A stretch of DNA of 64,000 bases from Candidatus Latescibacterota bacterium. GTDB taxonomy: Bacteria; Latescibacterota; UBA2968. The position numbers and the translations under genes are program-made. Each line of letters opens with the position of its first letter. The stretch's first letter is position 1. The notes beneath the pieces are model-generated. The model saw only the letters and a list, made by a program, of their open reading frames with translations, had not been told where the DNA came from and did not search any database. Location of the stretch: NCBI GenBank assembly GCA_965116885.1, contig OZ220741.1, forward strand, positions 4,256,001 to 4,320,000, given 5' to 3'. Positions 5,077-36,433 of this stretch are shown here, piece after piece.

Positions 5077-5092
5077 TGGCACGCGATTTGCA
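5077..5092 (+). promoter_or_regulatory. Sigma-54 -24/-12 promoter
   Basis: TGGCACG-CGAT-TTGCA, an exact match to TGGCACG-N4-TTGCW, 36 bp upstream of ATG 5129. Confidence 0.8.
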
Positions 5093-5128
5093 TAAGTCAT
5101 GATCAAAAAAACATTGCGGGAGGTCAAT

Positions 5129-14715: not shown

Positions 14716-14732
14716 TTTAAGGGAGGCTGGAC

Positions 14733-21800: not shown

Positions 21801-23583
21801 GACTTCGGCAACCACCATTTTGGGCATGTTGCCTCTGGCACTCATATTTGGCGGCGATTACGAAATTTGGCCCCCCTTTGCGATTGTGGTAATCGGAGGG
21901 CTGGCTGTTTCAACGGTTTCCACCCTCGTATTTATTCCCGTGGTGTACATGGGAATTGATCAGACCAAAGCCTGGTTGACGGATATTGGGTGGTTCGGGA
22001 TCGTATTGGGAACAACGGCAGCCGCGGGATTGACATATTGGGTTGACGGTTATTACCAGAGTTTGTTCTGGACCTGTCTTTTGGCATTGCCAGCCTGGAT
22101 GTTGTGTATGGGTGTAATCTGGATAGTGCAACGCATTTATCGCGCGCGTATGGCTTCTCTTGCCGAGATCGGCAATATTGAACATCTCGAAATTCGCAAT
22201 CTGACCAAAATTTATGGCGCGCCGGGACGATTTAAGCACGAATGGGATCGCTTTAAGCGGCGTCATCAGCGCCTTTTAGAGCGCGGGCAGGTATTGATAG
22301 ATAAAAAGGCTATTAAGGACAGTTTGTGGTGGAAGTTACCACTTCTGGCACTTTTGATTTATTTGGAAACCTATTTTGAACAGGGAGCCTGGATATTTTT
22401 GGCAGGGCTTGCTATATGGGGCCTCGTGCATCACCTCATACTATGCGCGGCAGCTTTGCGCGATTTTCAGATTGAGAACAGATGGATATCACAAATCGCC
22501 CGATTGATTTTGCCGCTGGTCTTTATCGCCTTTATCCATTGGCGTTTGGAACTTATATCTTTGACCATCGCCACTACTGCAATCTACTTGCTCTATCGCA
22601 TCATCGGGTTTTTGGCAAATCGCGTTGGACAAGGTCGCGTTGACCCCGAGCATATACCGGGCAAATTAGGCCCTGTTAAAGGCATCGTGTACCGCGGGGC
22701 GGCAGCCGTTCCCCTGATTGGCGTTCCGCGCCCACAATTCCAGGCTCTCGGCGGTGTGAGTCTCGATATTCCGCGCGGGATGTTTGGGCTTTTGGGCCCC
22801 AATGGCGCGGGCAAGACCACGCTGATGCGGATTGTGTGTCGGGTTTTGTCGTCAAATTACGGGTCGGTACTCGCCAATGGCACAATACCGCTTACACATC
22901 GGAATATGCAGGGGGTGATTGGCTATTTGCCGCAGCACTTTGGCCTGTATCTGCACATGTCTGCGTATAATTATCTGGAATACCGCGCGCTTTTAGAGGG
23001 ATTTAAGGATGGGGTCGCGCGGCGCAAGCGCGTTCAAGAATGTCTGGAGCAGGTCAATCTGTGGGATAGGCGAGACGATCTGATTGGTTCGTTCTCTGGC
23101 GGTATGAAACAGCGCGTGGGCATTGCACAAACCCTGCTGCACTTACCGCAGATTATCGTAGTGGATGAACCGACAGCGGGATTGGACCCACTCGAGCGTA
23201 TCCGGTTCAGAAATCTGCTGGCGCGATTTAGCCAGGAAAAAATTATTATTTTTTCCACACATATTGTCGAAGATATTGCGGGCAGTTGCAACCGATTGGC
23301 CGTGCTGAATCACGGTAAGCTGCTTTATACGGGAACCCCGATTGAAATGCGCGATTTGGCGCGCGATAAGGTGTGGGAGGCTCTGCTGCCAGATCCGCGT
23401 TTTGAAGCACTGGAACGCGACCTGGATATGATTACACATGTGCGCGTGCCCGATGGGATTCGGGTGCGGTTTCTCGCCACTGATCCCATCCCAGAAGCGC
23501 GTGCTGTTGCGCCCACCCTCGAAGATGCGTATCTCTACCTTTTGCGACATGGCGATGAATACAAACAGTCTAACATGGCGTGA
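18859..23583 (+). CDS. RND permease fused to a C-terminal ABC ATPase domain
   Basis: Complete RND module (GMLMDNGIVV, RVRPVLMT), extra TM helices, then GPNGAGKTT, FSGGMKQR, VDEPTAGLDP, STH in one 1574-aa frame. Confidence 0.92.
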   Translation: MTLAGIAVRRPVTTAMFFLGLAILGAISLDRLPVQIFPELVRPEVFVTVTQQGYSPEQVERELVMPVEREVGKLEGIEAYESFSRQNNGGVRISYAPNTDMKFALLQLESRITRLQPLLPERARVNIQRFDSSDLSASVMQIHVLGEGDINWLREFAEEKIRPELEAVDGVVNAQVLGGQRTAIEIIVDPLMLQAHQLSMSDVRNRINAFNTRRQYLGRVYDGDQAYAVSIQGQFTDLVQIRRVVIKPELPLHLGDIAKILYGLQERTDLQRINGKAAVGIRIQKDDEANLIELAGELEDTIERVNSDLAYENIQLVISQNQAEIMNEALNFLKRAAVVGGLLGLFVLFLFLRNLRFVAVLLLAIPCSLLLTFNLMYMWDLSLNVLSMCGLALAVGMLMDNGIVVMENIFKHFEQGKSPKEAAKAGTDEIARAVVAATATTITVFIPVVFIQSDFQDILREFALSIAFPLLASLLVALTLVPALASKTLSLASRPPTGTGALIEMYTVCLKAGLRHRISVSLGIVGALVITLIISFFFMLQQDIRREESRFTVYISMPEGTTIEALDAVVGEIESAVRDLKGIDRFTTSISETQASINVELLPLSERPDQISVDLIKENLEESFGDVQNAIVSYEAIARTGRGGGGGRGGGGGGGIRGTRQASGGFNLEGGAPSEMAVIRGYDFTVLQMLADDLVYRLEELEEIDPNSVRADAERGASEVHVLPDEEVMFDRRLQVRQVLNAVSDANPRGARSNISFLTPEGTEIPIDVRNVEDPEEEGEGIAGLRQTPILGTGGTYIPLVEVSHVRRDQGRSMILRTDQSRRVIVSYRFAEEILQSQPLLEASRAYVQAVVSEMVLPEGYSIEMIEAEEETIYYWMMGIAALLIFMILASLFESLSAPVIILCTLPAAIIGSCWALILSGTGLTSQEAPMALLGLIVLSGIAVNNGIVLIDAIETLRRRGFRRERAVLTASRSRVRPVLMTSATTILGMLPLALIFGGDYEIWPPFAIVVIGGLAVSTVSTLVFIPVVYMGIDQTKAWLTDIGWFGIVLGTTAAAGLTYWVDGYYQSLFWTCLLALPAWMLCMGVIWIVQRIYRARMASLAEIGNIEHLEIRNLTKIYGAPGRFKHEWDRFKRRHQRLLERGQVLIDKKAIKDSLWWKLPLLALLIYLETYFEQGAWIFLAGLAIWGLVHHLILCAAALRDFQIENRWISQIARLILPLVFIAFIHWRLELISLTIATTAIYLLYRIIGFLANRVGQGRVDPEHIPGKLGPVKGIVYRGAAAVPLIGVPRPQFQALGGVSLDIPRGMFGLLGPNGAGKTTLMRIVCRVLSSNYGSVLANGTIPLTHRNMQGVIGYLPQHFGLYLHMSAYNYLEYRALLEGFKDGVARRKRVQECLEQVNLWDRRDDLIGSFSGGMKQRVGIAQTLLHLPQIIVVDEPTAGLDPLERIRFRNLLARFSQEKIIIFSTHIVEDIAGSCNRLAVLNHGKLLYTGTPIEMRDLARDKVWEALLPDPRFEALERDLDMITHVRVPDGIRVRFLATDPIPEARAVAPTLEDAYLYLLRHGDEYKQSNMA

Positions 23584-24691: not shown

Positions 24692-25498
24692 ATGGGCAAA
24701 CAGAAAATTCTTATTGCAGATCACGATTCCCGCGTTCTATCGACACTCACAGAATTTTTGAGTGATGAACCTTATGAGATATTCAAGGCGGCAAATGGAA
24801 TGGAAGGGCTTGACGTTTTAAGACGCGAGAAGATTGATCTTGCTATTGCTGAAAAGCATATCGCGGGTCTTGGTGGGATAGCATTTTTGAAGGCCGTGAA
24901 GGTAGAGAAAATTCAGACAAATATTTTGATCATGGGCGGGATTGAGCATATGGAATCAACAGAAAAAATACTCAAGAGTGGTGCTATAAGCGTACTCGAT
25001 AAACCCGTCAAGAAGGGTGACTTTTTGGCAAAGATCAAAGCATTTATGCCACCAAATAACGGCAGAAACTGGTCTGAGAACGGCCAGTCAGGATCGGAAG
25101 CCTCGCCTTCATACCCCGTCCCAGTACAGGTTTCACAAGACAAGTGGAAAACTGATTTGGAATCATTTTTGAATGAGCGTTACCACGATCCAGACCTGGA
25201 ATGTGATGTTCTCATGTGCTACTTCGATTTATCGCGGTCACATGTTTGTGCGCTATTCAAAAAATATTTTGACAAGACTTATCGTGAAGTATTGCGAGAG
25301 GTCAGAGTAGCACAGGTAGAGCGTTTCTTAAAAGAATCATCTCTGAGTGTGAATGAAATTGCACACCTGTGTGGGTTTCATTCATCAGATCGTTTGCGTG
25401 TGGCTTTCAAGAAGATACATGACATTTCTCCTACCCTTTACCGCAAAAAAGTTATAAGCGGAGAAATTCCAAGAAGGTCCGGAAGGTTCAAGCGATGA
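24692..25498 (+). CDS. Atypical response regulator: REC domain plus AraC HTH
   Basis: KILIADHD...DLAIAE...KP receiver; LS...LFKK, SVNEIAHLCGF, FKK...SPTLYR AraC signature. Confidence 0.9.
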   Translation: MGKQKILIADHDSRVLSTLTEFLSDEPYEIFKAANGMEGLDVLRREKIDLAIAEKHIAGLGGIAFLKAVKVEKIQTNILIMGGIEHMESTEKILKSGAISVLDKPVKKGDFLAKIKAFMPPNNGRNWSENGQSGSEASPSYPVPVQVSQDKWKTDLESFLNERYHDPDLECDVLMCYFDLSRSHVCALFKKYFDKTYREVLREVRVAQVERFLKESSLSVNEIAHLCGFHSSDRLRVAFKKIHDISPTLYRKKVISGEIPRRSGRFKR

Positions 25499-28020
25499 AG
25501 ATTTTACATATTCTGGATGTTTCGCTGCCACACCGACAAAGCGGCTACAGTTTGCGAAGCCAATATATCATCAATACGCAGAAAGTCCTTGGCTTTGATC
25601 CTGTGGTGCTCACGCGGTGGGGCGTGTCTGAACAACTCGTGGATGGAGTTGAATATATCAACGATGTGCCTTATTTGAGAAATACTTCTGAATCATACAC
25701 AGCACGTCTGTCCGAACGTCTGGGCAAATTTCAATTGCCAGATACCCCACGAATCTATCGTGTGGGGCAGGAGCATCACTTTCGCAAGCGCGTTGCGCGG
25801 GCGATTGAGACGGAAAGACCCGATGTGTTACACGCGGCGTCACCGGGTAGAAATGCACAGGTTGTGATTGATATAGGACATCACTGTGGTCTGTCTGTGG
25901 TGTACGAGGTGCGGGGTTTGTGGCACGATAGCGGTGTGGCGCAGGGTATGCTGGCTCCCGATTCAGAGGTGTATCGCCAGCAGCACGCGCAACATGTCAA
26001 TGCGATGCAACAGGCCGATGCTGTGGTGACGCTGTCCGAGGTGTTAAAAGTTGAGTGCATACGCGAAGGGGTTGACGAAGAGAAAATTGGCGTAGTGCCC
26101 AATGGTGTGGCAGTTGAGCAATATGCACCGAAAGATCGGGCCGGCGAACTTGCCAATCGATTGGGTATTGAATCGGGCGATGTGGTGTTGGGCTATATCG
26201 GTCTGGTGCGGTCACTGGAGGGATTGCGGTTGTTGTTGCAGGCGTGTGAGGTTCTTCGCGGGCAGTATGCCAATCTCAAAGTGTTGATTGTGGGGGGTGG
26301 ACGAGACCTGCCAGCATTGCAGCGCGAAGCACAGAAACGCGGTCTGGCGGATGTGGCGATTTTTATGGGTGAAATACCGCACGATCAAATCGCGGACTAT
26401 TACGCGATGTTAGATGTTTTTGTGATTCCGCGTACGCGTAGCCGCGTTACCGAACTGGTCACGCCGATGAAGCCTTATGAGGCAATGGCGATGGAAAAAG
26501 CCGTTGTCGTCAGCGATGTAGCCGCACTCAAGGAGGTGGTTACAGACGGAGAAACCGGGCGCGTTTTTGTGGCAGATGATGTCGAAAGTCTCACCCAGAC
26601 GTGTGCCGAACTCATCGAGAATCCCTCGCTGCGGATGCAATTAGGACAAAAGGGCAGCGAATGGGTGCGGTCAGAGCGCACATGGAGGCAGGTTGTGGAA
26701 CGCTATCGCGGGATCTATGAGGCCGCGATAGCCGTTTGTCCTGCCCGTATGGAATGTGTTAATCAACAAGCAAAAACCCGCACACGCGTTGCATTTTACA
26801 GCCAGCATCTCATTGGCGTTGGGCACCATTTTCGCAATCGACAGATTGTCAATGAACTGGTCAAAACACGCGATGTGTTTTTTATCGATGGTGGACGTCC
26901 TGTTCCCGAGGCTGACCTCGATGAGCGGGTGACGCGTATTTCTCTGCTGCCCCTTCGCCTGGGCGCACAGGGTATTGAGTCTGTTGATAAAGAGCGCGAT
27001 TTGCAGACTGTGATGCGCGAGCGCCAGACACAGCTTGCCGACGTGATGGAGCAGATTCGCCCCGATGTGTTTTGTGTTGAGTTTTTTCCCTTTTCCCGGT
27101 GGTCGCTCAAGAGCGAGATTCTCAATACTATTGTCAGGCTCAATGAGATCAATCCCGGCGCGAAGGTGTTGTGTTCGCTGCGCGATATTCCCACGCGGGC
27201 AAAAAGCGATGTGTTGCAACCGACTGTTGCGCTTGCACAGAGACGCGATGGAGATGCGATGCGGTTTTATTCGGTGCCTTTTGGCGGGATACATCACGAG
27301 TATTTGGCTTTTAATCGGCGGTATTACGAGGAGGTTGTGCCCGTGTTGAATCAGTATTTCGATGCGGTGATGGTGCATGGCGATTCCCAACTATCCCGGT
27401 TGGAAGATCACTTTCCCTGGGTTGCTGATATCGGTATTCCCATCATTTATACGGGGTTTGTTTCTGAGAAACTCGAGAACGCATCTCGACCTGATGGTGC
27501 GCCGAATAGGTATGTGCTGGTCAGTGCTGGCGGTGGGGCTGAGGGGCTTGCGCTTGTTGCGCCGTGTATTGAAGCGTGGAAGCAATTGGCACAGGACAAT
27601 ACGCTCAACGGACGTGAGATGGTGATTTTTGCCGGTGCGTTTATCGAAGAGAAGCATTTTGACGCTTTGCGAGAATTGTGCGGTGATGGTCCGTTTCGCA
27701 TTGAGCGCTTTACGTCCAATTTTTTGGCGTGGATGAAATACGCAGATTTGTCGATTAGTCGTGCGGGCTACAATACGTGTATGAATGTGCTCGAGACACA
27801 GGTCCCATCGATTCTGGTGCCGAGTATTGCGATGGATGATCAGGGATTTCGCGCGCAGCAGTTGATGGGGTTGGGTATTGCCGGGGTGATACATCCCGAT
27901 CAAATAGGTGCGGGAAAGATGGCAAAAGCTATTGGCGAAATGCTCGCAAGTTTTGTGCCTGAACACCATCTATCTCTGGATGGTGCCGAGCAAACGCGAA
28001 AGTTTATAGAATCAGTCTAA
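25495..28020 (+). CDS. Two-domain glycosyltransferase (GT4 plus GT28/GT1-like GT-B)
   Basis: N-half YEVRG, ELVTPMKPYEAMA, VVSDV; C-half YSQHLIGVGH, VSAGGG, SRAGYNT. Confidence 0.88.
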   Translation: MKILHILDVSLPHRQSGYSLRSQYIINTQKVLGFDPVVLTRWGVSEQLVDGVEYINDVPYLRNTSESYTARLSERLGKFQLPDTPRIYRVGQEHHFRKRVARAIETERPDVLHAASPGRNAQVVIDIGHHCGLSVVYEVRGLWHDSGVAQGMLAPDSEVYRQQHAQHVNAMQQADAVVTLSEVLKVECIREGVDEEKIGVVPNGVAVEQYAPKDRAGELANRLGIESGDVVLGYIGLVRSLEGLRLLLQACEVLRGQYANLKVLIVGGGRDLPALQREAQKRGLADVAIFMGEIPHDQIADYYAMLDVFVIPRTRSRVTELVTPMKPYEAMAMEKAVVVSDVAALKEVVTDGETGRVFVADDVESLTQTCAELIENPSLRMQLGQKGSEWVRSERTWRQVVERYRGIYEAAIAVCPARMECVNQQAKTRTRVAFYSQHLIGVGHHFRNRQIVNELVKTRDVFFIDGGRPVPEADLDERVTRISLLPLRLGAQGIESVDKERDLQTVMRERQTQLADVMEQIRPDVFCVEFFPFSRWSLKSEILNTIVRLNEINPGAKVLCSLRDIPTRAKSDVLQPTVALAQRRDGDAMRFYSVPFGGIHHEYLAFNRRYYEEVVPVLNQYFDAVMVHGDSQLSRLEDHFPWVADIGIPIIYTGFVSEKLENASRPDGAPNRYVLVSAGGGAEGLALVAPCIEAWKQLAQDNTLNGREMVIFAGAFIEEKHFDALRELCGDGPFRIERFTSNFLAWMKYADLSISRAGYNTCMNVLETQVPSILVPSIAMDDQGFRAQQLMGLGIAGVIHPDQIGAGKMAKAIGEMLASFVPEHHLSLDGAEQTRKFIESV

Positions 28021-28032
28021 ATGAGGTGAAAG

Positions 28033-29436
28033 ATGAAAATTTATGTGTCACATCAGTATCACGACCGCGAGAAAGTAATGGCGTCTAATAGCGGGGCAGT
28101 TCTTTCGGGGTTTAACCATGTACAGGCGTTATCAAAGTATTGCGATGTGTATATGCCAGCATCTGAAGCGGTGGATTATGGTCCGAATTTGCACGGCATT
28201 CAACCAGCTTATGAGACGATTGATGCTTCTCGCCAGTGGTTTGCGCGGCAAAATTTTGATGGTGTGTTGATGTTTGAACCCAAGGCAGATGACCTGGCAT
28301 TTTTTCGCCATGTGTGTCCTGCACCCATTGTGATTCGGCTGTCGTGTTCTTTTGGAAACAATCGGGATTTTGTCGATAAGGTGCTTCAATGTTATTCGCT
28401 GTTACGGCCTTGTGATGCGCTGTCGCCCAAGTCGGCCTATGTCGCTGACGAAGTGGGCAAGATAGTGTTTGACCGATCGTATTTGCACGCGATTACCAAT
28501 GGGGTAGATGCCGAGGTGTTTGTGCCGATGGATAAGTTGCAAGCGCGCAAAGAGGTCGCGGATAAGACGGGTGATCAACGTTTTTTGGAGATGCCTGTGG
28601 TGGGTTTTTGTGGGCGGTTTGAGCCGGGCAAAGGCGCGTATCCGTTTTTGCGGATGGCCGATCTGAATCCCAATGTGTTGTTTGCGGTGATTGGCAAGCA
28701 GTTCGCACCTGTGACACATCCTCCCAATGTGATCTTTTTGGGCGCGCAACCCTATACGGATATGCCGCTGTATTACAATATGCTCGATGTGTTGTGTGCG
28801 CTGTCGGTGTATTCGTATGAGTCGTGTCCTTCAACCGTGATAGAGGGCATGGCGTGTGGTCTTCCAGTTGTGGCGACAAATTTTGCGGGCGCGCCAGAGT
28901 TGTTGGGCAGTTGTGGGCGATTGATTGAGATTGAGCGATTTGAAGACGAGCCATTGAATGTGACGGGTTATATCGCTCCTGAGGTGATTTCGGATGCTGT
29001 GCGCGATTTGTTGAATAGCAAAACGGAGCGTGTAGATATGGGGGAGCGCGCTCGCAAACGCGCGCTCGATTTTTCCTGGGATTGTATGGCGCAGCAGCAC
29101 ATGGCACTGTTTGAAAGTCTGCGGATCAAACGCGATGTCTCCGTCTGCCCGATTCCAATAACCGTAAGTTTTACACAGGGTTGTGATATGTCCGGTGTGC
29201 CGAAAAGTGTGTCCAAAGGATTTAACTATTTGGGAAGCGCGCAAGGTCCGTTGCCTCGCATTTCGTTTTTTGGGCAAGATATGTCCCTTATTGAAGGCCT
29301 GGGCCTTCACTTGATGCAACATTTACATCCAAACGAAGTCGAAGCTGCTCTGATAGGTTTATGCGAGACGCGTGCTGAAGCTTATAAGACGCTTCGCAAA
29401 ATCCGACACTTCAGCGATATGCTCACAGCTCCCTGA
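28033..29436 (+). CDS. GT4 family glycosyltransferase with C-terminal extension
   Basis: ITNGVD..F, GRFEPGKG, ESCPSTVIEGMACGLPVV, FSWD. Confidence 0.88.
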   Translation: MKIYVSHQYHDREKVMASNSGAVLSGFNHVQALSKYCDVYMPASEAVDYGPNLHGIQPAYETIDASRQWFARQNFDGVLMFEPKADDLAFFRHVCPAPIVIRLSCSFGNNRDFVDKVLQCYSLLRPCDALSPKSAYVADEVGKIVFDRSYLHAITNGVDAEVFVPMDKLQARKEVADKTGDQRFLEMPVVGFCGRFEPGKGAYPFLRMADLNPNVLFAVIGKQFAPVTHPPNVIFLGAQPYTDMPLYYNMLDVLCALSVYSYESCPSTVIEGMACGLPVVATNFAGAPELLGSCGRLIEIERFEDEPLNVTGYIAPEVISDAVRDLLNSKTERVDMGERARKRALDFSWDCMAQQHMALFESLRIKRDVSVCPIPITVSFTQGCDMSGVPKSVSKGFNYLGSAQGPLPRISFFGQDMSLIEGLGLHLMQHLHPNEVEAALIGLCETRAEAYKTLRKIRHFSDMLTAP

Positions 29437-29603
29437 CAGGTGCCACGGAGATGCTATCTGTGCTTCGCTGAGATATTGAAGAAGGGAGGTGAGAGATGAC
29501 AAGACGAGTTGTATCAAATCCTATGCAATCGATTTGATACAATGTAGAAAGGCAAAAAAGAAGTTGATGTACATTACAATTCACTTATTTTTTGGAGGAT
29601 ATC

Positions 29604-29954
29604 ATGTCTCAAACATTGTCAAACCGCATGACAACGGTCCCGCAGCAATCGTTTTTGAATTGTGTATCTTTATCTATACGGGAGGAAGATTTAAACACAA
29701 GTGAGTTAGATGGACTTCACGGTGGTAATCCCAGGATAGTTCAATTTGTTCTAGAAAATATCCCAAGAGTCTATAACCAAGCTCAACAAGCTATCAATAG
29801 AGGGATGCCCCCTGTTATACCTGCTACTCTGCACAAAGCTGAACAACTTATTGATGCTTGTGATAGTATTATAGATGAAATATCAGAGGGAATTGAGGAT
29901 TTAGGGAATAACTGGGAGCGGTATCTTTACCATGCTGCATACAGTGGACGATAG
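29604..29954 (+). CDS. Candidate double-glycine-leader bacteriocin/RiPP precursor (41-aa leader, 75-aa core)
   Basis: GGAGG RBS; leader ends EEDLNTSELDGLHGG; C39 transporter lies 2 kb downstream. Confidence 0.8.
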   Translation: MSQTLSNRMTTVPQQSFLNCVSLSIREEDLNTSELDGLHGGNPRIVQFVLENIPRVYNQAQQAINRGMPPVIPATLHKAEQLIDACDSIIDEISEGIEDLGNNWERYLYHAAYSGR

Positions 29955-30079
29955 CCCAAAGGCTTCTGGTAGGGCTTCGGCAGGAGCAGCCCATCATCCC
30001 TGTCTGCTCTGCCGACAGACCGGCATCTTTCGAGAACGCTGAAGATGATGATAAGCCTGTAAAAAGACTTCCTCATCGG

Positions 30080-30212
30080 TCACCACATTACGCACCTAGT
30101 GATCGTTTGAGCTGTCGGTTCAAACTCTTTGGCCAAATCGTTGGCACTACGACCAGACTAGCGCGGACATTTGTTGGTGAAATGCCGCTGGATATGATCT
30201 TTTTCTTCCCAC
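30080..30212 (-). pseudogene. IS3-family orfA fragment, frameshifted
   Basis: AGGAG + GTG: MGRKRSYPAAFHQQMSALV, frameshift, SGRSANDLAKEFEPTAQTI. Confidence 0.75.
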
Positions 30213-30256
30213 TTTGGACTCCTCTCCCTGAAAGAGATAAGTTGTCCACTAAAACG

Positions 30257-30381
30257 ACGCTGTTGCCGAATTCCGAATTCTGTCTTGATGCAACTAAACA
30301 TAGGGCTTATGAGCCTGAATTCAGACACCAATAGCCATTTTTCCAACTACAGAGTCCTCTTGATCAATTCGGCAACAGCAT
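30257..30381. mobile_element. ~125-bp MITE or internally deleted IS
   Basis: Terminal inverted repeats A[C/T]GCTGTTGCCGAATT (15/16 match); flanking direct repeat CTAAAACG at 30249 and 30382. Confidence 0.8.
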
Positions 30382-30435
30382 CTAAAACGGGGCAAGTCCA
30401 ATCTCAAGCGTCCGAATCATTGGGAAAATTAAAAA

Positions 30436-30678
30436 GTGAAAAAAAACCATTCTTTTAGTTACTGGCAATTGCTGTTCAATTTTATAGTAGGGGTTTTTTT
30501 CGGCCCAATCTGCCTCACTGTGTTATTTATGCCGATACACCTTGATGGTCTCATTTTGATGTTGAGTAGTATTGTAGGTGCCTTTGCATTTAGTGGATTT
30601 TATTGGATGATTTATAAGCCAAGGAAATGCGAGAACCACCCTTCTAAAAAAAATAAATACCAGCGTCAGACAGAGTAG
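30436..30678 (+). CDS. Small two-TM membrane protein, possible immunity protein
   Basis: Two hydrophobic segments and a basic tail; AT-rich; weak RBS. Confidence 0.5.
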   Translation: MKKNHSFSYWQLLFNFIVGVFFGPICLTVLFMPIHLDGLILMLSSIVGAFAFSGFYWMIYKPRKCENHPSKKNKYQRQTE

Positions 30679-30938
30679 TGGATATTTACCAGATCTTTGT
30701 CCTTTTTCCTTTCATTGTCACCACACCCATTTCAGGTCTTATTCTGTGGTTAGGTCCATCCATCAGGTCGCTATTACTCTTCAGTTTCACAACAGCTTTT
30801 TGTGCTGGTGATGTCTTGATATTTTGAAATATCGGGCAAATGGAAAATGACCAATGGATTCACGATCATCCGACGGAAATAGGTTGCGACGTATTAGCGG
30901 AGTCTATCGTTGTGTCCTCTGAAGAATACCGCGGATAG
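30657..30938 (+). pseudogene. Fragment resembling the C-terminal half of a DUF3267-type membrane zincin, with in-frame TGA
   Basis: YQIFVLFPFIV...CAGDVLIF*NIGQ...IHDHPTEIGCDV; stop at 30825; N-terminal HExxH half absent. Confidence 0.45.
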
Positions 30939-30974
30939 ATCAAAACCAACTAAAACTCACATTGGAAGCGTGAG

Positions 30975-31838
30975 ATGACATATCCAAATCTGAAACAGTC
31001 AGTTTGGCTGCTGGTATTATTGTGCCTCATTACAATTGGTTTAGCCATATTGATGGGTGTTATAGGTGCCATTATTGACGAGCCACTGTCTGATAATACT
31101 TACCTGACGAGCCTTGTGTCATTGGTAAGTATTATTCTGCTTCTGTGCTACGTTTCGCATCGGACAGGTCGAGCATGGACAGATATGTTGCCTCTTGCGA
31201 TTAAAAATATAGACTATGATTGGCGCATGTGGCTTGCCGTTGGGTTATCCATCTTTGGACTGGGAGTTGTTCTTTCTGAATTGGACAATGCGGTGGTATC
31301 TATATTGCCAATGCCCGAAATGTTTCAGGACATCTTTCAGATAATGATCGGGAAAAAAACATCTTATCTGTCAGCCTTATTTGGCGCAGTCGTGATAGCA
31401 CCTCTTGGTGAAGAGATCGTTCATAGAGGCATTATTTTGAAAGGTTTATTGGCACATTATAGTCAAAATTGGGCGATTGTTTGGTCGGCAATTCTGTTTG
31501 GTCTGATGCATCTGAATCCGTGGCAATTTCCAATAGCTTTTATATTGGGACTTGTCTTTGCCTATTGGGTTATTCAAACGGGGTCTTTGTGGCCTAGTAT
31601 TTTGGGACACGCACTGCACAATTTGATAACTGTGACATTTTGGCATTTCGATGTACCGGGTTTTCCTGTTTCGAAAGATTTGAATGTTGTAATTCACAAT
31701 CCATGGTGGTTGAATGTGTGCGGACCAATATTGGCCACGATTGGGTTGTGGTGGTTTTATAAGGTGGCGAAACGCGAAAAAACAGATCACCGTGAGACGG
31801 AGGTTGAACTTGAAGAAACTTTAGGATGCGATAATTGA
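30975..31838 (+). CDS. CPBP/Abi (CAAX) family intramembrane protease
   Basis: EEIVHRG, FGLMH, HALHN motifs; multiple TM segments. Confidence 0.93.
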   Translation: MTYPNLKQSVWLLVLLCLITIGLAILMGVIGAIIDEPLSDNTYLTSLVSLVSIILLLCYVSHRTGRAWTDMLPLAIKNIDYDWRMWLAVGLSIFGLGVVLSELDNAVVSILPMPEMFQDIFQIMIGKKTSYLSALFGAVVIAPLGEEIVHRGIILKGLLAHYSQNWAIVWSAILFGLMHLNPWQFPIAFILGLVFAYWVIQTGSLWPSILGHALHNLITVTFWHFDVPGFPVSKDLNVVIHNPWWLNVCGPILATIGLWWFYKVAKREKTDHRETEVELEETLGCDN

Positions 31839-31884: not shown

Positions 31885-34800
31885 ATGAACCTTTCGCACT
31901 TTTTCATCAATAACTCAGTTCGGTCACAATCTGTTCCTTTTTCCTTTGGGAGCATTGTTTTTCAACAGGGTCAAGATGGTGAGGCGTTTTACATCGTGCA
32001 GTCTGGGCGGTTGCGGGTGATGAAGCAGGATGGGAATGGCAATTCGACAACTGTGGGCTATTTGTATGCGGGCGATCATTTTGGCGAAGGGGCACTGTTG
32101 AGTAGGCAGGGGCACCGAGCGACGGTGCGAGCGGTTGAGGATGCGGATGTGTTGCAGGTGCCGAAGGATGAGTTTTTTAAGGCTGTGAGAAAACATTCTG
32201 ACGTAAGGGCATATCTTGAGGAGCAGGTCTCCTGTATTGCGTATCGGGATTTTACGCGATTTTTGAAAGGGGATGTTCCGGGCGAAGTGATGCGGGTGTT
32301 GTTTGCGCGGTTGAAGCGCGAGGCGGTTGAGGAGGGTGTGGCCGTTGTTGAGCGAGGTCAGTTGGGTCAGCGTTTTTATTTGATTGGCAGCGGTCAGTTG
32401 GAGGCTGTGTTAGAAAATGGGGATACGGTGATTCTACGCCCGGGTGATTATTTTGGAGATGGTAGAGATGATGAAACGGTGATTCGCAGTCGGCGTGATA
32501 GCGTGCTCTTTTATATAGATAAAAGCGATTTTAATAAGTTAAAAGCTATGATGCCGGGATTTGAGGCGGCGTTGGAGAAAGGTCGCATATCGCGTGGAGA
32601 ACAGCGATCGAATGAGTCATTGTTTCAACGAGCGCGGGATGATCGGCAAGCCCTGTCCCCATCGGGGTATCGAGAGACCACACCTGTTGAGCAATCTGTC
32701 GCCCAAGAAGACACAGAGGCCAATCCAGCATCCAATGTGGTTAATATCAGAATAGACGGTGAAAAACCACAAGTGCCCACATGGTTTCGCTTTCCGTTTT
32801 TGAAGCAGCACGATCAATCGGATTGCGGCGCAGCGTGTTTGGGCATGATTTGTAAGTATTACAAGATGCCTATTGGGTTGAACAGACTGCGCGATATGTC
32901 CAATGTGTCGCGGTATGGCACATCGATGGCGGCATTGGCTGAGGCTGCGGAAACCATAGGTTTTGTCACGCGCGGCGTGCGCACGGGATATGAAGCTCTG
33001 ATGCGTACAGAATTGCCGGCCATTCTCCATTGGGAAGGCAATCATTTTGTAGTCTTGTATCAGATAAATAAAAAGGAGGTGAAGATAGCAGATCCCGGCG
33101 TGGGTATTCGCAAGTTGTCGCGGGCAGAGTTTGAGAAGGGCTGGACGAATATGGCGCTTTTGTTGGAATACACAGATCAGGTGGCAGAGAATGAACCGTC
33201 TCAGTCTTCTTTTAAGCGGTTTTTTCCATTGATCAGGCCCTATAGGGGCATTTTGATTGAGGTATTGCTGGCGTCTCTGGTGCTCAGTTTGTTCGGTCTT
33301 GCATCGCCCATTTTTATGCAGACAATTGTCGATCAGGTCTTAGTGCATCACGATGAGGACTTGTTGAATTTGATGCTGGTGGGTATGGTCGTGGTTGCGT
33401 TGTTCCAGATGGGGACATCAACGTTGCGCGTCTATTTGATCGGGTATGTGAGTGCGCGGTTGAGCATTGCGATGTTGTCGCGTTTTTATCAGCATTTATT
33501 GGCACTGTCCATGCGGTTTTTTGCTCTGAGGCGCACGGGCGATTTGACCACGCGGTTTCGGGAGAATGCAACGATTCAGCGTTTGTTGACGGGTGCGACG
33601 GTTTCTGCGGTTCTGGATTTTATCATGCTGTTTGTCTATCTGGGCTTGATGTTTTATTACAATGCCGAACTGACGCTGGTCATGCTGATTTTCGTGCCGC
33701 TATCTGTAGGTCTCACGCTGATTTATACGCCTATTTTGAAGTCTTTCAGCCAGCGCGCTTTTCTGGCACGCGCAGAACAGTCATCGGTCTTGATTGATTC
33801 GCTGCATGGCATTGATGTGGTCAAAGCCTCGGCAGTAGAACGCGCGACACGGTGGCATTGGGAAGGCAAGTTCACAAAGGAGATTCAAATTGGCTTTCAA
33901 CGGTTAAAAATGCAGATGTTGTTTGGGGGGATGGGAAGCGTGATCAATTTGCTCAGCAGTACGGTGATTTTGTGGTATGGTGCCTCATTGGTGATTGCGG
34001 GGGACCTGTCGGTTGGGCAGTTGATGGCGTTTAATGCGCTGATTGGCAATGTGATGGGACCGATTATGGGGTTGATTGGAATATGGCCGCAGGTGCAAGA
34101 AGCGCGTATTGCTCTGGATCGGTTAAATGATGTGTATGATACGCAGATGGAGGATGCGCGGCAACAGGGTCAGGGTTTGATCTTAAAGCATTTGGAAGGG
34201 CGCGTGGTTTTTGAGGGGGTATTTTTCAGATATGGTGTCGGTTCTGATGAACCGTATGTGTTGAATAACATAGACCTGACGCTTGAACCTGGTCAAAAAG
34301 TTGCAGTTGTGGGACGCAGTGGCGCGGGTAAAACCACGTTGGTCAAGCTGGTACCCCGTTTGTTTGATCCGTCAGAAGGGCGCGTGACGCTTGATGGCAT
34401 GGATGTGCGAGATCTGGATCCCCATTGGTTGCGGCGGCAGGTGGGTATGGTGATGCAGGAGCCGTTTTTGTTCTCTGGCACGATTGCAGAAAATATCGCT
34501 ATTGGCCAGTCAGATGCGGACATGGACCGCATTTTGGAAGTGGCAAATCTATCTTGTGTACACGATTTCGTGAGCGATATGCCTTTGGGCTATGAGACAA
34601 AGGTGGGCGAGCAGGGTGTGGGGCTGTCTGGTGGACAACGACAGCGGATTGCAATAGCACGGGCGCTGTATTGTGATCCGAAAATTTTGATTTTTGATGA
34701 GGCGACTAATGCGTTGGATACAGATTCAGAACAGGCGATACAGGCGAATTTAGATCTGTTTTTGGATGCTCGCACGGCGTTGATTATCGCGCATCGGTTG

Positions 34801-34935
34801 AGTACGGTGCGGGATGCGGATGCGATTGTGGTCTTAGATAAGGGTCATATTGTGGAGGTGGGCACGCACGATGAGTTGATGGTGCAAGAGGGGTTGTATT
34901 ATCACATGTGCAGTCAACAGCTGCAGGTGGTGTGA
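31885..34935 (+). CDS. Peptidase-containing ABC transporter (two cNMP-like domains, C39, TMD, NBD)
   Basis: GDHFGE/PGDYFG; QHDQSDCGAACL, HWEGNHFVV, IADP; GRSGAGKT, LSGGQRQR, DEAT. Confidence 0.95.
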   Translation: MNLSHFFINNSVRSQSVPFSFGSIVFQQGQDGEAFYIVQSGRLRVMKQDGNGNSTTVGYLYAGDHFGEGALLSRQGHRATVRAVEDADVLQVPKDEFFKAVRKHSDVRAYLEEQVSCIAYRDFTRFLKGDVPGEVMRVLFARLKREAVEEGVAVVERGQLGQRFYLIGSGQLEAVLENGDTVILRPGDYFGDGRDDETVIRSRRDSVLFYIDKSDFNKLKAMMPGFEAALEKGRISRGEQRSNESLFQRARDDRQALSPSGYRETTPVEQSVAQEDTEANPASNVVNIRIDGEKPQVPTWFRFPFLKQHDQSDCGAACLGMICKYYKMPIGLNRLRDMSNVSRYGTSMAALAEAAETIGFVTRGVRTGYEALMRTELPAILHWEGNHFVVLYQINKKEVKIADPGVGIRKLSRAEFEKGWTNMALLLEYTDQVAENEPSQSSFKRFFPLIRPYRGILIEVLLASLVLSLFGLASPIFMQTIVDQVLVHHDEDLLNLMLVGMVVVALFQMGTSTLRVYLIGYVSARLSIAMLSRFYQHLLALSMRFFALRRTGDLTTRFRENATIQRLLTGATVSAVLDFIMLFVYLGLMFYYNAELTLVMLIFVPLSVGLTLIYTPILKSFSQRAFLARAEQSSVLIDSLHGIDVVKASAVERATRWHWEGKFTKEIQIGFQRLKMQMLFGGMGSVINLLSSTVILWYGASLVIAGDLSVGQLMAFNALIGNVMGPIMGLIGIWPQVQEARIALDRLNDVYDTQMEDARQQGQGLILKHLEGRVVFEGVFFRYGVGSDEPYVLNNIDLTLEPGQKVAVVGRSGAGKTTLVKLVPRLFDPSEGRVTLDGMDVRDLDPHWLRRQVGMVMQEPFLFSGTIAENIAIGQSDADMDRILEVANLSCVHDFVSDMPLGYETKVGEQGVGLSGGQRQRIAIARALYCDPKILIFDEATNALDTDSEQAIQANLDLFLDARTALIIAHRLSTVRDADAIVVLDKGHIVEVGTHDELMVQEGLYYHMCSQQLQVV

Positions 34936-35050: not shown

Positions 35051-36433
35051 ATGGCAGAATCGCTTTTGGAGATATCGACCGAGACAATGTCTCCCGGTGT
35101 AATCCAAGGACAAGATGACGCGGCAGAAGAGGTACAGGCGTTTATGGGGTCTTTGCGGCCCTTTTGGGGGCGCGCATTGCTCTATATTGTCCTGCTATTT
35201 GTGATTGTTGCCATTACCTGGGCGTGGTGGAGTAAGATAGATGTGGTGGCATCAGCACCTTTTCGGTTGGTGCCTCTGGGACAAGTGAAGACGATGCAGG
35301 CACAGCGAGGGGGTGAGATTGAGTTGATTGGTGTGAAAGAAGGGGATCATGTCGAGAAAGGGCAGGTATTGTTCAAGCTGAAATCGTGGGAGACCTGGGG
35401 AGAGTTGCGGGAATGGGAGCAGGCAAAGATGGCTTTTCAAAAGGCAGAGTATGATTTCAAGACGGTGTTGCCACAAAGGGCAAGGTTAAATCGAGAGACG
35501 ATAGGGGCATTGGAACAACGTCTTTCTGTTTTGCAGCAGTTTATGGAGGCACATCAGGATGCGCTGGAAGATTATCACAGTGATGTGGGGGATGGTGTCG
35601 GATCGAAAACCACAACATCTGACGCGGGGTTGCAGGCACAGATTGGATTTCGACAGGCTGAGATTGATCTTATGAAAGGGGAGTTTTTGCAGCAAAAGAC
35701 GCTGTTTGAGCGCGAGTTGATCAGCCGGGTGGATATGAATCGCGCGCGTGTGCAGTATTTAAGTGCTTTATCTGCGCTTCCGTCGCGTATGTCAGAGATA
35801 TACAAGAATGAAATGGCAGTGACTGATCTCAAGCGTCAAATCACAGAGGCGCAAATTGCACACGAGCGCGAGGCATCGCAGATGCGACACACTTATGAGA
35901 CCGCACAATTGCGATTGGAACAGGCGCGCAAACGCATTGATCGCACCCTCGAAGCCGAGTCGGATTTGATTCTGGCACCTGAGTCGGGGATTGTCACACA
36001 GGTGATGGTAAATGCGATGGGACAGGTGATCAGCAAAGGGCAGGCTTTAATCGCGCTGGCACCTGCTTCTGCACCGGTGGTTGCAGAAGTGATGGTGTTG
36101 AATAAAGATGTGGGCTTGCTCAAGCCCGGACAGTTGGTCAAGCTGAAATACGATGCTTATGCCTTTCAGAATTTTGGTATCAAACGCGGGTGGCTTACAT
36201 CCATCTCGCCCGATGCGGTGATTGATGAAAGTGTCGGGACAATATTTAAGTGCGTTGTCGAGTTGGAAGAAAATACGATGCGCGTGAAAGGATATGACAA
36301 GCCTTTGATGTTCGGCATGAAGGGCACGGCGGAGATTATGACCGATCGGCAATCGGTTTTGCTGATGTTGCTTTCTCCTTTGCGACAGCTTTACGAGTCG
36401 GCGAGATACGATGTGCAGGAGGGGGTATTGTGA
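35051..36433 (+). CDS. HlyD family secretion adaptor
   Basis: N-terminal TM, VKEGD.V.KGQ.L, coiled coil, GQ.VKLK.DAY.FQ.FG, ISPDA, GM.G.AEI. Confidence 0.93.
   Translation: MAESLLEISTETMSPGVIQGQDDAAEEVQAFMGSLRPFWGRALLYIVLLFVIVAITWAWWSKIDVVASAPFRLVPLGQVKTMQAQRGGEIELIGVKEGDHVEKGQVLFKLKSWETWGELREWEQAKMAFQKAEYDFKTVLPQRARLNRETIGALEQRLSVLQQFMEAHQDALEDYHSDVGDGVGSKTTTSDAGLQAQIGFRQAEIDLMKGEFLQQKTLFERELISRVDMNRARVQYLSALSALPSRMSEIYKNEMAVTDLKRQITEAQIAHEREASQMRHTYETAQLRLEQARKRIDRTLEAESDLILAPESGIVTQVMVNAMGQVISKGQALIALAPASAPVVAEVMVLNKDVGLLKPGQLVKLKYDAYAFQNFGIKRGWLTSISPDAVIDESVGTIFKCVVELEENTMRVKGYDKPLMFGMKGTAEIMTDRQSVLLMLLSPLRQLYESARYDVQEGVL

Follow-up and report, generated by a model that had tools for sequence, protein, structure and literature searches.

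Within the 64,000-nucleotide stretch of Latescibacterota DNA that was analysed (the window), a 116-residue open reading frame is preceded by genes for a response regulator and two glycosyltransferases and followed by genes for a small membrane protein, an intramembrane protease, a peptidase-containing ABC transporter (PCAT), an HlyD-type adaptor, a PpiC/SurA-like protein and the epimerase WecB (Table 1). The frame is a genuine small gene: it has its own ribosome-binding site and is under purifying selection, with dN/dS at 0-0.40 in its leader and 0.32-0.68 in its core (six pairs from four genomes). Its product, P0001, had no NCBIfam match at E ≤ 10 and only a chance-level match in Pfam. A tblastn search of plasmids and phages with the precursor returned no match, and a profile of the 43-sequence family alignment found none among PDB sequences at E ≤ 10. 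A promoter and terminator scan around the precursor gave no plus-strand site, the RNA fold 3' of its stop codon scored z = -0.40, and Rfam on positions 29300-31000 gave only a chance-level miRNA match (E 0.68). The string MTQTLANRMTT was absent from the searched literature. The titles and abstract openings of the papers listed from the Latescibacter bacteriocin literature contained nothing on this system, and the excerpt of PMC3482391, from the double-glycine and Gemmatimonad literature, held nothing relevant.

Table 1. Genes and sequence features of the precursor locus, in window coordinates
Feature	Position	Strand	Length, support or remark
REC+AraC response regulator	24692-25498	+	Pfam/NCBIfam scans; flanking gene
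Glycosyltransferase, GT4 + GT28-C	25495-28020	+	841 aa; PF00534, PF13439, PF04101
Glycosyltransferase, GT4	28033-29436	+	467 aa; PF00534, PF13439
Conserved upstream region travelling with the precursor	29389-29603	+	blastn, alignment
Perfect 12-bp inverted repeat	29509-29542		TTGTATCAAATC-N10-GATTTGATACAA; upstream of the precursor
Second inverted repeat	29553-29594		before the precursor
Ribosome-binding site	29594-29599		GGAGGA; precedes the precursor ATG
Precursor gene	29604-29954	+	116 aa; ATG at 29604, stop 29952-29954
Leader peptide	29604-29726	+	residues 1-41, ending LNTSELDGLHGG; predicted cleavage after Gly41
Core peptide	29727-29954	+	residues 42-116 (75 aa) plus stop codon; predicted helix, MPPV turn, helix
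orf80	30436-30678	+	80 aa, two hydrophobic segments; candidate immunity/partner protein
CPBP/CAAX (Rce1-like) intramembrane glutamic protease	30975-31838	+	PF02517 E 1.6e-22
PCAT (peptidase-containing ABC transporter)	31885-34935	+	two cNMP-binding-type domains, C39, ABC membrane domain, ATPase
HlyD-type periplasmic adaptor (membrane fusion protein)	35051-36433	+	TIGR01843 215.1 bits vs cut-off 208.65; Pfam
Cytoplasmic PpiC/SurA-like protein	36430-37203	+	PF00639 E 2.5e-11; without signal peptide
UDP-GlcNAc 2-epimerase WecB	37217-38296	+	TIGR00236 331.4 bits vs cut-off 210.15

An earlier sequence-only reading had called the product a double-glycine precursor with an ELSxxELxxxxGG leader, and this assignment was borne out by the leader motif, by its near-invariance among homologues and by an intact C39 transporter nearby. 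Gly40-Gly41 (codons ggt ggt at 29721-29726) directly follow EEDLNTSELDGLH, and LNTSELDGLHGG carries L30, E34, L35, L38, G40 and G41, that is L-12/E-8/L-7/L-4/GG, the same positions that are given as C39 determinants for ComA and LahT150 (PMC6363468, in excerpt). A regular expression for this motif (a hydrophobic residue at -12, E or D at -8, hydrophobic residues at -7 and -4, then G followed by G or A, ending within the first 60 residues) matched one of the 365 mechanical window ORFs of at least 50 residues, the precursor ORF alone. The leader is identical in amino acids to that of L001, one of three related loci, and 96% identical in nucleotides, compared with 86-90% nucleotide identity for the neighbouring genes. 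The proposed check with double-glycine leader HMMs went the other way, as P0001 matches no such model even at E ≤ 10. The precursor is most likely a double-glycine peptide that would be cut after the GG and exported by the adjacent transporter, with cleavage predicted after Gly41. Its unusual features are the 41-residue leader and a core without a hydrophobic segment.

Judged by its leader, the precursor belongs to an undescribed and unnamed double-glycine leader family of uncultured bacteria. The family comprises 45 peptides (44 from one homologue search plus P0020 from an exhaustive search) from Latescibacterota/Gemmatimonadota-type metagenome genomes, and its window member is covered by no Pfam or NCBIfam model. 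Four of the 12 exhaustive-search matches (P0014, P0015, P0018 and P0019) were left out as presumably spurious, being long proteins with several weak stretches; P0019 is a repeat protein. The members share the consensus M[TS]QTLANRMTT..Q.F..C..L...E.L....[LM]....GG, with a leader of 41 residues in 44 of 45 and GG at residues 40-41 in 42 of 45. Behind this leader stand six mutually unrelated core types, of which individual siblings end in CCCCCCCDD, CGCDG or NVNVNV repeats; 44 of the 45 cores are net negative, with a pI mostly around 4. Homologues keep the leader and vary the core, as the sequence-only reading had expected: among nine close homologues 26 of the 28 invariant columns fall within residues 1-42, and against L001 the core retains 56% amino acid identity. 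A tblastn search with nine family members found one leader-family copy at each locus (the window, L001, L002 and L003). TIGR03949, the double-glycine bacteriocin model of the lactobin A/cerein 7B class IIb family, accepts two distant members, P0032 and P0040 (24.1 and 22.9 bits vs a cut-off of 21.5), with matches covering residues 30-60 and 30-68, respectively; one source names P0032 as a lactobin A/cerein 7B family bacteriocin. P0001 fits neither TIGR03949 nor Bacteriocin_IIc (PF10439); both models span a hydrophobic segment rich in Gly and Ala, of which the P0001 core has none.

The failure of P0001 to fit any leader model, together with its distance from any PCAT at two of the four loci, would suit a small cytoplasmic protein that is no transporter substrate, with the GG motif and the gene position coincidental. 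We regard this as extremely unlikely: no other part of the gene is as conserved as the leader, its length is fixed at 41 residues in 44 of 45 members in front of unrelated cores, its motif fits every known C39 determinant, and contigs of equal size in both match sets suggest co-occurrence with the PCAT family. These four short contigs, of 17600, 7828, 23476 and 18583 nt, occur among both the peptide and the PCAT matches, and their identical sizes suggest that each carries both genes.

The core itself had been described as a 75-residue acidic amphipathic peptide with a single Cys and few Ser/Thr, and these particulars hold. It contains one Cys and four Ser/Thr, has a net charge of -4 and a pI of 4.89, and reaches a maximum 18-residue helical hydrophobic moment of 0.708, compared to 0.441 ± 0.085 in shuffled sequences, only 4 of 2000 of which attain that value. 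The further suggestion that such an acidic core is unusual goes too far: its acidity is ordinary, both within the family and beside microcins, which mostly carry a neutral or negative charge and have cores 60-90 residues long (PMC10233263, in excerpt). The moment peaks twice, at residues 49-66 and 89-106 (IIDEISEGIEDLGNNWER), and the core is predicted to form an amphipathic helix, an MPPV turn and an acidic amphipathic helix. An AF2 model of the precursor (nine sequences) has helices at 43-65 and 71-113 and is unreliable, with a mean pLDDT of only 45.6 and a pTM of 0.23. The core is polar: AVLIMFW make up 37% of its residues and its maximum 19-residue Kyte-Doolittle mean is 0.49, whereas 32 of 36 other family members reach at least 1.19. 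Its best ESM Atlas matches (0.77) fall in clusters auto-named 'Bacteriocin' and, being below 0.9, are leads only.

The PCAT gene lies 1.9 kb downstream of the precursor, with the HlyD adaptor gene next to it. Its product matches PF00027 twice (E 4.4e-31), PF03412, PF00664 and PF00005, and narrowly passes TIGR01193, 'peptide cleavage/export ABC transporter', with 526.4 bits vs a cut-off of 523.85. The C39 Gln, Cys, His and Asp, found in KQHDQSDCGAACL, NHFVVLY and IADPG, align with the catalytic residues of PCAT1 (4ry2), and on this alignment the catalytic triad of the window PCAT is intact. The C39 domain is nearly invariant across 25 PCAT relatives, and the first cNMP-type domain contains a phosphate-binding-cassette-like FGEGALL...RATVRA that is invariant in the same number. 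In total 440 relatives were found at E ≤ 1e-10, with the same domain set in all 120 of those listed. The window also carries LptA/LptD_N and BamD-type genes, and thus its host is a diderm, which fits a type I route through PCAT and membrane fusion protein; the scanned window ORFs include no gene for an outer-membrane channel.

The start of the PpiC-like gene overlaps the HlyD stop, the WecB gene starts 13 nt after the PpiC-like gene, and WecB is probably co-transcribed with the export genes. The PpiC-like protein matches TIGR04500 with E 3.9e-23 and 82.3 bits, below the cut-off of 180. This model describes MirC, the partner of the rosaritide graspetide synthetase, which is likewise a cytoplasmic SurA/PpiC-like protein encoded beside a PCAT (PMC13097080, in excerpt); by analogy, the window protein is a possible chaperone or partner of the precursor. 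It differs from MirC in lacking the N-domain (only profile positions 88-336 are matched) and in keeping a parvulin (Rotamase) match. An AF2 model from two sequences was unusable (pLDDT 44.4), and no ATP-grasp ligase was found among the window ORFs scanned.

Comparison of the four loci delimits what travels with the precursor. The conserved upstream region shares 48 nt with the 3' end of the 467-aa glycosyltransferase gene; by blastn, window positions 29389-29530 match L002 and L003, where the shared upstream DNA likewise begins at the point corresponding to 29389 and a relic of the 3' end of that glycosyltransferase gene lies upstream of the precursor. The RNA fold of the region scored z = -2.10, and the perfect inverted repeat within it may be an operator, a promoter or an RNA hairpin. 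Directly downstream of the precursor an orf80 homologue is present in four of four loci (82%, 73% and 78% amino acid identity in L001, L002 and L003), and these genes encode conserved proteins of 64-80 residues with two transmembrane segments. No Pfam family was found for orf80, and its best ESM Atlas match (0.89, below 0.9) is a lead only; its position and topology suggest an immunity protein. In L002 and L003 neither glycosyltransferases nor a PCAT lie within 10 kb of this gene pair. By these comparisons the mobile unit is a two-gene module of precursor and orf80 with about 215 nt of upstream DNA, unlinked to the enzymes. The exchangeable cargo slot that had been proposed is therefore real insofar as a module moves, but the slot is not tied to the enzymes.

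The CPBP protease gene, whose product contains the EExxxR, FxxxH and HxxxN motifs, occurs in the window and L001 only; like orf80, this protease may serve in immunity, or else in processing. When the window is compared with L001 (one genome pair), the leader has a dN/dS of 0.00 and the core one of 0.68; orf80 stands at 0.36, the CPBP protease at 0.40, and the PCAT (0.10), HlyD, WecB, PpiC-like and glycosyltransferase genes at 0.10-0.19.

On balance we favour, with moderate confidence, a class II microcin-like interpretation, in which the precursor is a member of the double-glycine family that the PCAT would cut and export as an anionic bacteriocin, with orf80 as its immunity partner. The C-terminal part of the leader, L30-x3-E34-L35-x2-L38-x-G40-G41, would fold into a short helix that docks in the C39 domain, after which the PCAT would cleave the precursor behind Gly41. 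The PCAT would then work with the HlyD adaptor, and with an outer-membrane channel whose gene lies elsewhere, to export the 75-residue acidic helix-turn-helix peptide. Peptide and two-TM orf80 would be paired in a two-gene module, much as class II microcins are with their immunity proteins; the peptide would most likely act as an anionic bacteriocin against relatives, with orf80, and perhaps the CPBP protease too, protecting the producer. The sequences show the gene, its motif, the pattern of conservation, the intact C39 residues and the linkage of the module at all four loci, and from them we infer cleavage, export, antibacterial activity and immunity. The unique motif, the 45-member family, the C39 transporter with its HlyD partner, the linkage of orf80 in four of four loci, the fast core beside slow export genes, the equal contig sizes that suggest co-occurrence with the PCAT family, the diderm host, and a size and charge (75 residues, -4) within the class II microcin ranges all count in its favour. 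Against it stand the misfit of P0001 to any double-glycine model, a leader of 41 residues vs 15-18, a polar core where known microcins are described as highly hydrophobic, the lack of an outer-membrane channel gene in the scanned ORFs, L002 and L003 without a PCAT within 10 kb, the unreliable structure model, a comparison of rates with the neighbouring genes drawn from a single genome pair, and 'Bacteriocin' Atlas matches too low in score to be meaningful. As for the channel, TolC can be encoded away from the microcin cluster.

The likeness to class II microcins, as exemplified by MccV (pre-microcin, immunity protein, CvaB, CvaA and TolC), extends to the diderm producer, the PCAT with HlyD-type adaptor, the hypervariable cores behind a conserved signal, the neutral or anionic core of 60-90 residues and the small membrane protein encoded beside the peptide (PMC10233263 and PMC12219008, in excerpt). 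Of the five-part microcin system, the window holds the pre-peptide, the PCAT, the HlyD adaptor and two immunity candidates (orf80 and the CPBP protease); the published system lists TolC as its OMF and a signal sequence of 15-18 residues (PMC10233263, in excerpt). In contrast, the leader here is 41 residues long in all but one of the family members and carries an additional conserved box at its N-terminus, the core is a polar helical one where microcins have a hydrophobic one, two cNMP-type domains are added to the PCAT, and the cluster includes the cytoplasmic PpiC/SurA-like gene and the CPBP protease, all in the phylum Latescibacterota. The peptide has no sequence similarity to any named microcin. 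Should it prove to be antibacterial, the concept of anionic class II microcins would reach a new phylum and a non-hydrophobic helical scaffold.

Long-leader PCAT cargos offer a second comparison. Nif11-type and NHLP-type families, reportedly described by Haft et al. in 2010, have leaders of about 70-80 residues. They resemble the present family in having a long conserved GG leader in front of unrelated cores, in occurring singly or in sets, and in lying near or away from a PCAT; they differ in that the leader here has 41 residues, that P0001 matches no NCBIfam model, those families included, at E ≤ 10, and that the window cluster is without a maturase (lanthionine synthetase or cyclodehydratase). 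The family's charge and tails bear on a further alternative, an exported peptide with some other role, such as metal or cation binding, surface coating or carriage, in which the acidic and poly-Cys tails would be functional. The net negative charge of 44 of 45 cores at a pI mostly near 4 is consistent with such a role, and the CCCCCCCDD, CGCDG and NVNVNV tails of siblings are atypical of known bacteriocins. We nevertheless consider it quite improbable, as the pairing with orf80 and the fast core evolution suit a toxin-immunity pair better, and we know of no precedent among PCAT cargos for a metal-binding, coating or carrier role.

The nucleotide-binding-type domains of the transporter point to HetC of Nostoc PCC 7120, which shares a cNMP-type domain, a catalytically intact C39 domain and an ABC exporter (PMC10986499, in excerpt). 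The window PCAT differs in having two cNMP-type domains and in adjoining genes for an HlyD adaptor and a putative double-glycine substrate, neither of which lies near HetC according to that article. This likeness opens the possibility, which we hold to be unlikely yet not negligible, that the peptide is a signal or developmental factor exported through a nucleotide-gated HetC-like PCAT and sensed by neighbouring cells, with no toxin involved; orf80 would then serve as receptor or accessory protein in a circuit that includes the response regulator nearby. The two N-terminal cNMP-type domains, the first with its invariant FGEGALL...RATVRA, are in keeping with gating, as is the in vitro binding of ppGpp by the HetC cNMP domain, the substrate of HetC being described as not known (PMC10986499, in excerpt). 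A polar core without the hydrophobic segment expected of membrane-active bacteriocins, the REC+AraC regulator 4 kb upstream of the precursor and the perfect 12-bp palindrome in front of it also favour a signal. However, no histidine kinase was found in the cluster, and the regulator is missing from L002 and L003 and only 43-46% identical between window and L001. Furthermore, fast divergence of the core (dN/dS 0.68) and the swap of its C-terminal tail are what one sees more often in conflict genes, and 75 residues is large for a double-glycine pheromone, those of the ComC and BlpC types having about 17-40.

A related and equally tentative idea is that the leader is a two-part address, that export of acidic cargo is nucleotide-gated, and that the polar, non-membrane-active cargo of the window is secreted to act as a signal or effector and forms no pores as a bacteriocin would. 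The last 12 leader residues would dock in the C39 domain, while the N-terminal box M[TS]QTL[AS]NRMTT..Q.F..C would be read by the cNMP-type domains or by the PpiC/SurA-like partner, and a nucleotide second messenger would gate export of the acidic cargo repertoire, as proposed for ppGpp and HetC. If this were true, transporters of HetC architecture would have in this family their first set of natural substrates.

C39-exported double-glycine peptides are familiar in Firmicutes and Enterobacteria, but almost nothing is known of them in uncultured phyla such as Latescibacterota. The window offers a clean example, with a new 41-residue leader family of 45 members and odd cargos, poly-Cys tails included, a transporter family with two cNMP-type domains and 440 relatives, and a portable module of a peptide and a small membrane protein. 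The precursor is an adjacent candidate for a natural substrate of the HetC-like transporter class, the search for whose substrate is a standing question of cyanobacterial developmental biology, and the conserved leader could serve as a genome-mining handle or a secretion tag.

The sequence-only reading had suggested the Cys and Ser of the ACDS motif as candidate S- or O-glycosylation sites. Such a product, decorated before export at Cys86/Ser88 or another residue by both glycosyltransferases with UDP-HexNAc from WecB, would make sense of the genes that flank precursor and exporter in the same orientation, namely WecB and two enzymes of GT4 type, of which one bears a fused GT28-C/MGT-like domain, of WecB following the PpiC-like gene so closely, and of the gene order being kept in L001; moreover, the relic of the 467-aa glycosyltransferase gene upstream of the precursor in L002 and L003 shows the adjacency to be old. 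The candidate acceptors, however, are poorly conserved: across the nine close homologues Cys86, Ser88 and Thr75 are each kept in five and Ser114 in one, and only Ser94 is widely kept (eight of nine). The best NCBIfam matches of the glycosyltransferases are of exopolysaccharide types, namely stp3 (325 bits, below cut-off), BshA and HpsO, and no SunS-type family is among the matches listed, which for the 841-aa protein are the best 25 of 37. The enzymes found here are of GT4 and GT28-C type, and SunS-like ones are members of GT2. Pfam scans of the ORFs revealed no thioredoxin, DsbB or thiol-disulfide oxidoreductase gene in the cluster. The regulator and both glycosyltransferases are syntenic in L001 and absent within 10 kb in L002 and L003, where the module persists, which makes their link to the peptide doubtful.

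Glycocins such as sublancin, glycocin F and pallidocin do resemble the window system: their leader ends in a double glycine, a PCAT exports them, their core is helix-loop-helix-like, and glycosyltransferase genes lie nearby. Their clusters, however, encode a SunS-like transferase and thiol-disulfide oxidoreductases, and their peptides carry 4-5 Cys (PMC6405829, in excerpt); the window is without a SunS-like transferase, thioredoxin or DsbB, and its peptide has one non-conserved Cys and acceptor residues that are not conserved either. The ACDS proposal thus found no backing in these comparisons, the peptide is probably not glycosylated, and we rate a glycosylated product as very unlikely.

The precursor gene has a GC content of 0.405 and a GC3 of 0.316, compared to a GC of 0.492 for the window and a GC3 of 0.52-0.56 for the glycosyltransferase, PCAT and HlyD genes. 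It is thus indeed more AT-rich than the neighbouring enzymes, as had been remarked from the sequence, but this is not peculiar to it, for low GC is also found in the response regulator (0.426), orf80 (0.370) and CAAX protease (0.419) genes.

We confirmed the predicted precursor gene as an ORF encoding 116 aa that opens with ATG at 29604, closes with a stop codon at 29952-29954 and follows a ribosome-binding site (GGAGGA, 29594-29599). Gly40-Gly41 is encoded at 29721-29726 and is preceded by the residues EEDLNTSELDGLH. Among 365 mechanical ORFs of at least 50 aa in the window, this ORF was the sole match to the canonical leader expression, with the pattern required to end within the first 60 residues. 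In addition to GG, the leader carries L-12, E-8, L-7 and L-4; the consensus before GG for ComA is L(-12)-x3-E(-8)-L(-7), and in the LahT150 complex a hydrophobic groove holds residues -4, -7 and -12, as given in a section of PMC6363468. The 75-aa core bore out the acidic, amphipathic character claimed for it: it has one Cys, four Ser/Thr, a net charge of -4 and a pI of 4.89, and two strongly amphipathic 18-residue stretches (residues 49-66 and 89-106). Its maximum hydrophobic moment was 0.708 versus 0.441 +/- 0.085 in shuffled cores, a value reached by 4 of 2000 shuffles. The structure models of the precursor and of the nearby PpiC-like protein were unreliable. The sequence-only reading had also set the gene apart as AT-rich, and its GC content is indeed low (0.405, GC3 0.316; window 0.492); however, the response regulator, orf80 and CAAX protease genes are low in GC too, so the low-GC stretch is patchy and the precursor is not the sole case.

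Curated models did not bear out the precursor itself, which had no Pfam or NCBIfam match even at E<=10, whereas residues 30-60 of P0032 and 30-68 of P0040, two distant relatives, scored above the curated cut-off set for the double-glycine class IIb bacteriocin model TIGR03949; P0032 is annotated accordingly in one source. A word-indexed search gave eight close relatives, 53-83% identical, and their alignment showed the anticipated combination of a conserved leader, almost invariant through G40-G41-N42, and a core that varies with indels. Exhaustive phmmer with the precursor returned 12 matches: two close relatives, six short proteins whose likeness was confined to the first 41-58 residues, and four long proteins, matched in weak and scattered stretches, that were set aside. 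A profile search found 44 proteins, which together with P0020 from phmmer make a family of 45. The leader is 41 aa long in 44 members and has GG at residues 40-41 in 42, the exceptions being a 2-residue insertion in P0047 and G-E in P0033 and P0034; the consensus is MTQTLANRMTTxPxQxFVACxPLxxREExLxxxxMxExxGG. The leader string MTQTLANRMTT occurred in none of the papers open to text search. The 25-28 extra N-terminal residues of the leader are at least as conserved in the family alignment as the C39-recognition part, and have no counterpart in class II microcin signals, which are 15-18 aa long as described in part of PMC10233263.

This leader precedes six mutually unrelated core types: A (n=9, including the window precursor; polar helix, PP turn, acidic helix), B (n=11; hydrophobic segment, NPQQ, acidic helix), C (n=14; hydrophobic segment and ELTSE, then NV repeats or a Cys-rich tail), D (n=6; W..VKW..FEAG type), E (n=2; long, Pro/Gly-rich) and F (n=3; ending in CCCC(CCC)DD). 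The core is net negative in 44 of the 45. Sibling peptides (P0048, P0050, P0051, P0035-P0047) end in CCCCCCCDD, CGCDG/CDCDCCN or NVNVNV, the last C-terminal to the hydrophobic segment; we know of no described bacteriocin with tails such as CCCCCCCDD, CGCDG or NVNVNV. A contig of 4,952,970 nt, equal in size to the genome contig of L003, one of three related loci, is given as the source of both P0050 and P0051.

Genes around the precursor, with dN/dS between the window and the related locus L001
Feature	Position	Strand	dN/dS	Remarks
REC+AraC response regulator	24692-25498	+		
841-aa GT4 + GT28-C glycosyltransferase	25495-28020	+	0.19	
467-aa GT4 glycosyltransferase	28033-29436	+	0.15	
Precursor	29604-29954	+	leader 0.00; core 0.68	
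orf80	30436-30678	+	0.36	80 aa, two hydrophobic segments
CPBP/CAAX protease	30975-31838	+	0.40	
Peptidase-containing ABC transporter (PCAT)	31885-34935	+	0.10	two cNMP-type domains, C39, ABC; above TIGR01193 cut-off
HlyD adaptor	35051-36433	+	0.10	above TIGR01843 cut-off
Cytoplasmic PpiC/SurA-like protein	36430-37203	+	0.17	
WecB	37217-38296	+	0.11	
TPR protein	38669-39331	+		

The Gln, Cys, His and Asp of the PCAT C39 domain align with the PCAT1 residues. With PCAT residues 1-440 as query, 440 of 8000 candidates scored had E<=1e-10; the cNMP, C39 and ABC-membrane domain set was present in all 120 relatives listed, and the few that are named among the matches listed come from Gemmatimonadota or Latescibacteria MAGs. 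The C39 domain was nearly invariant when 25 relatives were aligned. Within PCAT residues 1-290 (window 31885-32760), the first cNMP-type domain contains a phosphate-binding-cassette-like motif, FGEGALLSRQGHRATVRA (FGEGAL...RA), that is invariant in these relatives; the corresponding stretch of the second domain looks degenerate. HetC has the same transporter architecture; PMC10986499 reports binding of ppGpp to the HetC cNMP domain in vitro and describes the HetC substrate as unknown. Two PCATs of the family, P0055 and P0092, share at least one genome contig (5,559,252 nt). Four short contigs (17600, 7828, 23476 and 18583 nt) match in size between the peptide and PCAT tables; we infer that they are the same contigs, which suggests that the PCAT is physically linked to other core types too. 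The cNMP domains, together with the polar core, favour the main alternative, an exported signal whose release would be nucleotide-gated, which we regard as unlikely.

Compared with L001, the genes around the precursor are 86-90% identical at the nucleotide level and the leader 96% (100% in amino acids), whereas the core is 76% identical in nucleotides and 56% in amino acids. Homology is interrupted at 29896-30400, across the last ~20 core codons and the spacer, and the core tail is of the NNWERYLYHAAYSGR type in the window versus FENGVK.GW.PG.GYGG in L001-L003. The window spacer between precursor and orf80 is 481 nt long, and L001 does not conserve its mechanical ORFs (e.g. 30107-30334); the spacer of L002 and L003 is ~120 nt, with a 15-bp perfect hairpin after the precursor stop. 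A fast-evolving core together with two adjoining membrane proteins is, in this one genome pair, the pattern expected of a toxin with its protectors. The size and charge of the core, its fast evolution and its pairing with orf80 jointly point to a class II microcin-like bacteriocin, with a membrane protein as its cognate immunity factor. The response regulator is only 43-46% identical in amino acids to its L001 counterpart (4966-5799), compared with 85-92% for all neighbours; the gene was either replaced or evolves very rapidly.

The three further loci with precursor relatives, L001-L003, all belong to Candidatus Latescibacterota MAGs. L001 has the gene order of the window except for a DDE transposase gene (12168-12953, minus strand) that separates the CPBP gene from the PCAT gene and has no counterpart in the window. 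The neighbours of the precursor in L002 and L003 are a LarB/AIRC-like gene on one side and a sodium:solute symporter on the other, with neither a PCAT nor the flanking glycosyltransferases within 10 kb. An orf80 homologue (73-82% amino acid identity) nevertheless follows the precursor in all four loci, and DNA homology to the window begins at 29389, within the final 48 nt of the gene for the 467-aa glycosyltransferase. The portable unit thus comprises upstream DNA, precursor and orf80; the exchangeable cargo that had been proposed holds in this form, but not as a slot among the enzymes. Upstream of the precursor, L002 (~9725-9790) and L003 (~9750-9815) retain a 3'-terminal relic of this glycosyltransferase gene, ~21 codons with an in-frame stop and the same terminal stop position, with no intact copy nearby. 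The relic suggests that the module originated from a window-type locus, the direction of transfer we would propose. L003 also carries S58 peptidase, GT2 glycosyltransferase and radical SAM/SPASM genes at 13829-17331 (minus strand), 3.5-7 kb 3' of the precursor. A perfect 12-bp inverted repeat, TTGTATCAAATC-N10-GATTTGATACAA, occupies 29509-29542, 62-95 nt 5' of the precursor start, and a second 12-bp repeat, 92% complementary, at 29553-29594 extends to the ribosome-binding site. L001 has the two repeats in identical form (9906-9939, 9950-9991), and they are only partially conserved in L002 and L003; the region has an RNA fold z of -2.10, and the repeats could act as an operator or fold into a hairpin in the 5' UTR.

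The adjacency of precursor and 467-aa transferase is, judging from the relic, old, and WecB is probably co-transcribed with the export genes, both of which favour some link to glycosylation, which had been proposed for Cys and Ser in the ACDS motif. However, only five of nine homologues keep Cys86, and the same number keep Ser88; the peptide-orf80 module persists without the transferases in two of four loci. Furthermore, glycocin clusters encode a SunS-like transferase and thiol-disulfide oxidoreductases, with 4-5 Cys in the peptide, according to the portion of PMC6405829 on these clusters, whereas the window transferases are of GT4 type, their best NCBIfam matches are exopolysaccharide-type and below cut-off, and the window cluster has no oxidoreductase gene. 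We therefore consider such glycosylation very improbable.

The precursor is in all likelihood a GG-cleaved cargo of the PCAT; the whole reading, in which this cargo is an antibacterial class II microcin-like bacteriocin with its cognate membrane immunity protein, is favoured by a modest margin of confidence. The precursor would be synthesized in the cytoplasm, the C-terminal helix of its leader would dock onto the C39 domain, the transporter would cleave after Gly41, and the product, an acidic helical hairpin of 75 aa, would exit through PCAT, HlyD and an outer-membrane channel; these functions are all predictions. The PpiC-like protein lacks a signal peptide and matches only the C-terminal part of TIGR04500, below cut-off. 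Among the proteins covered by that model is MirC, which a graspetide synthetase requires as its SurA-like partner or chaperone, with a PCAT in the same cluster, as reported in part of PMC13097080. No ATP-grasp gene was found among the scanned window ORFs, and our guess is that the PpiC-like protein is a chaperone of the precursor, e.g. around its invariant RGMPPV turn. Double-glycine cargo of a PCAT is a known kind of system; what is new is the family defined by the 41-aa leader, with cargos that are acidic and in part bizarre, a double-cNMP transporter with a putative natural substrate adjoining, and, in an uncultured phylum, a peptide-orf80 module that is portable.

The window also encodes LptA/LptD_N-like and BamD-like proteins, sigma-54, IF-2, NusA and PNPase, and is thus chromosomal DNA of a diderm. 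A single ORF of 1574 aa (18859-23583, plus strand) joins an AcrB-type RND pump, matched at residues 5-634 and beyond, to an ABC ATPase domain (1299-1440); it comes after a further AcrB gene and a gene for an adaptor, and may be a real fusion or a two-gene read-through. In a 1113-aa protein (5099-8440, plus strand), five lamin-tail domains (PF00932, E 9.5e-71) are accompanied by a FlgD-Ig-like match at the C terminus.
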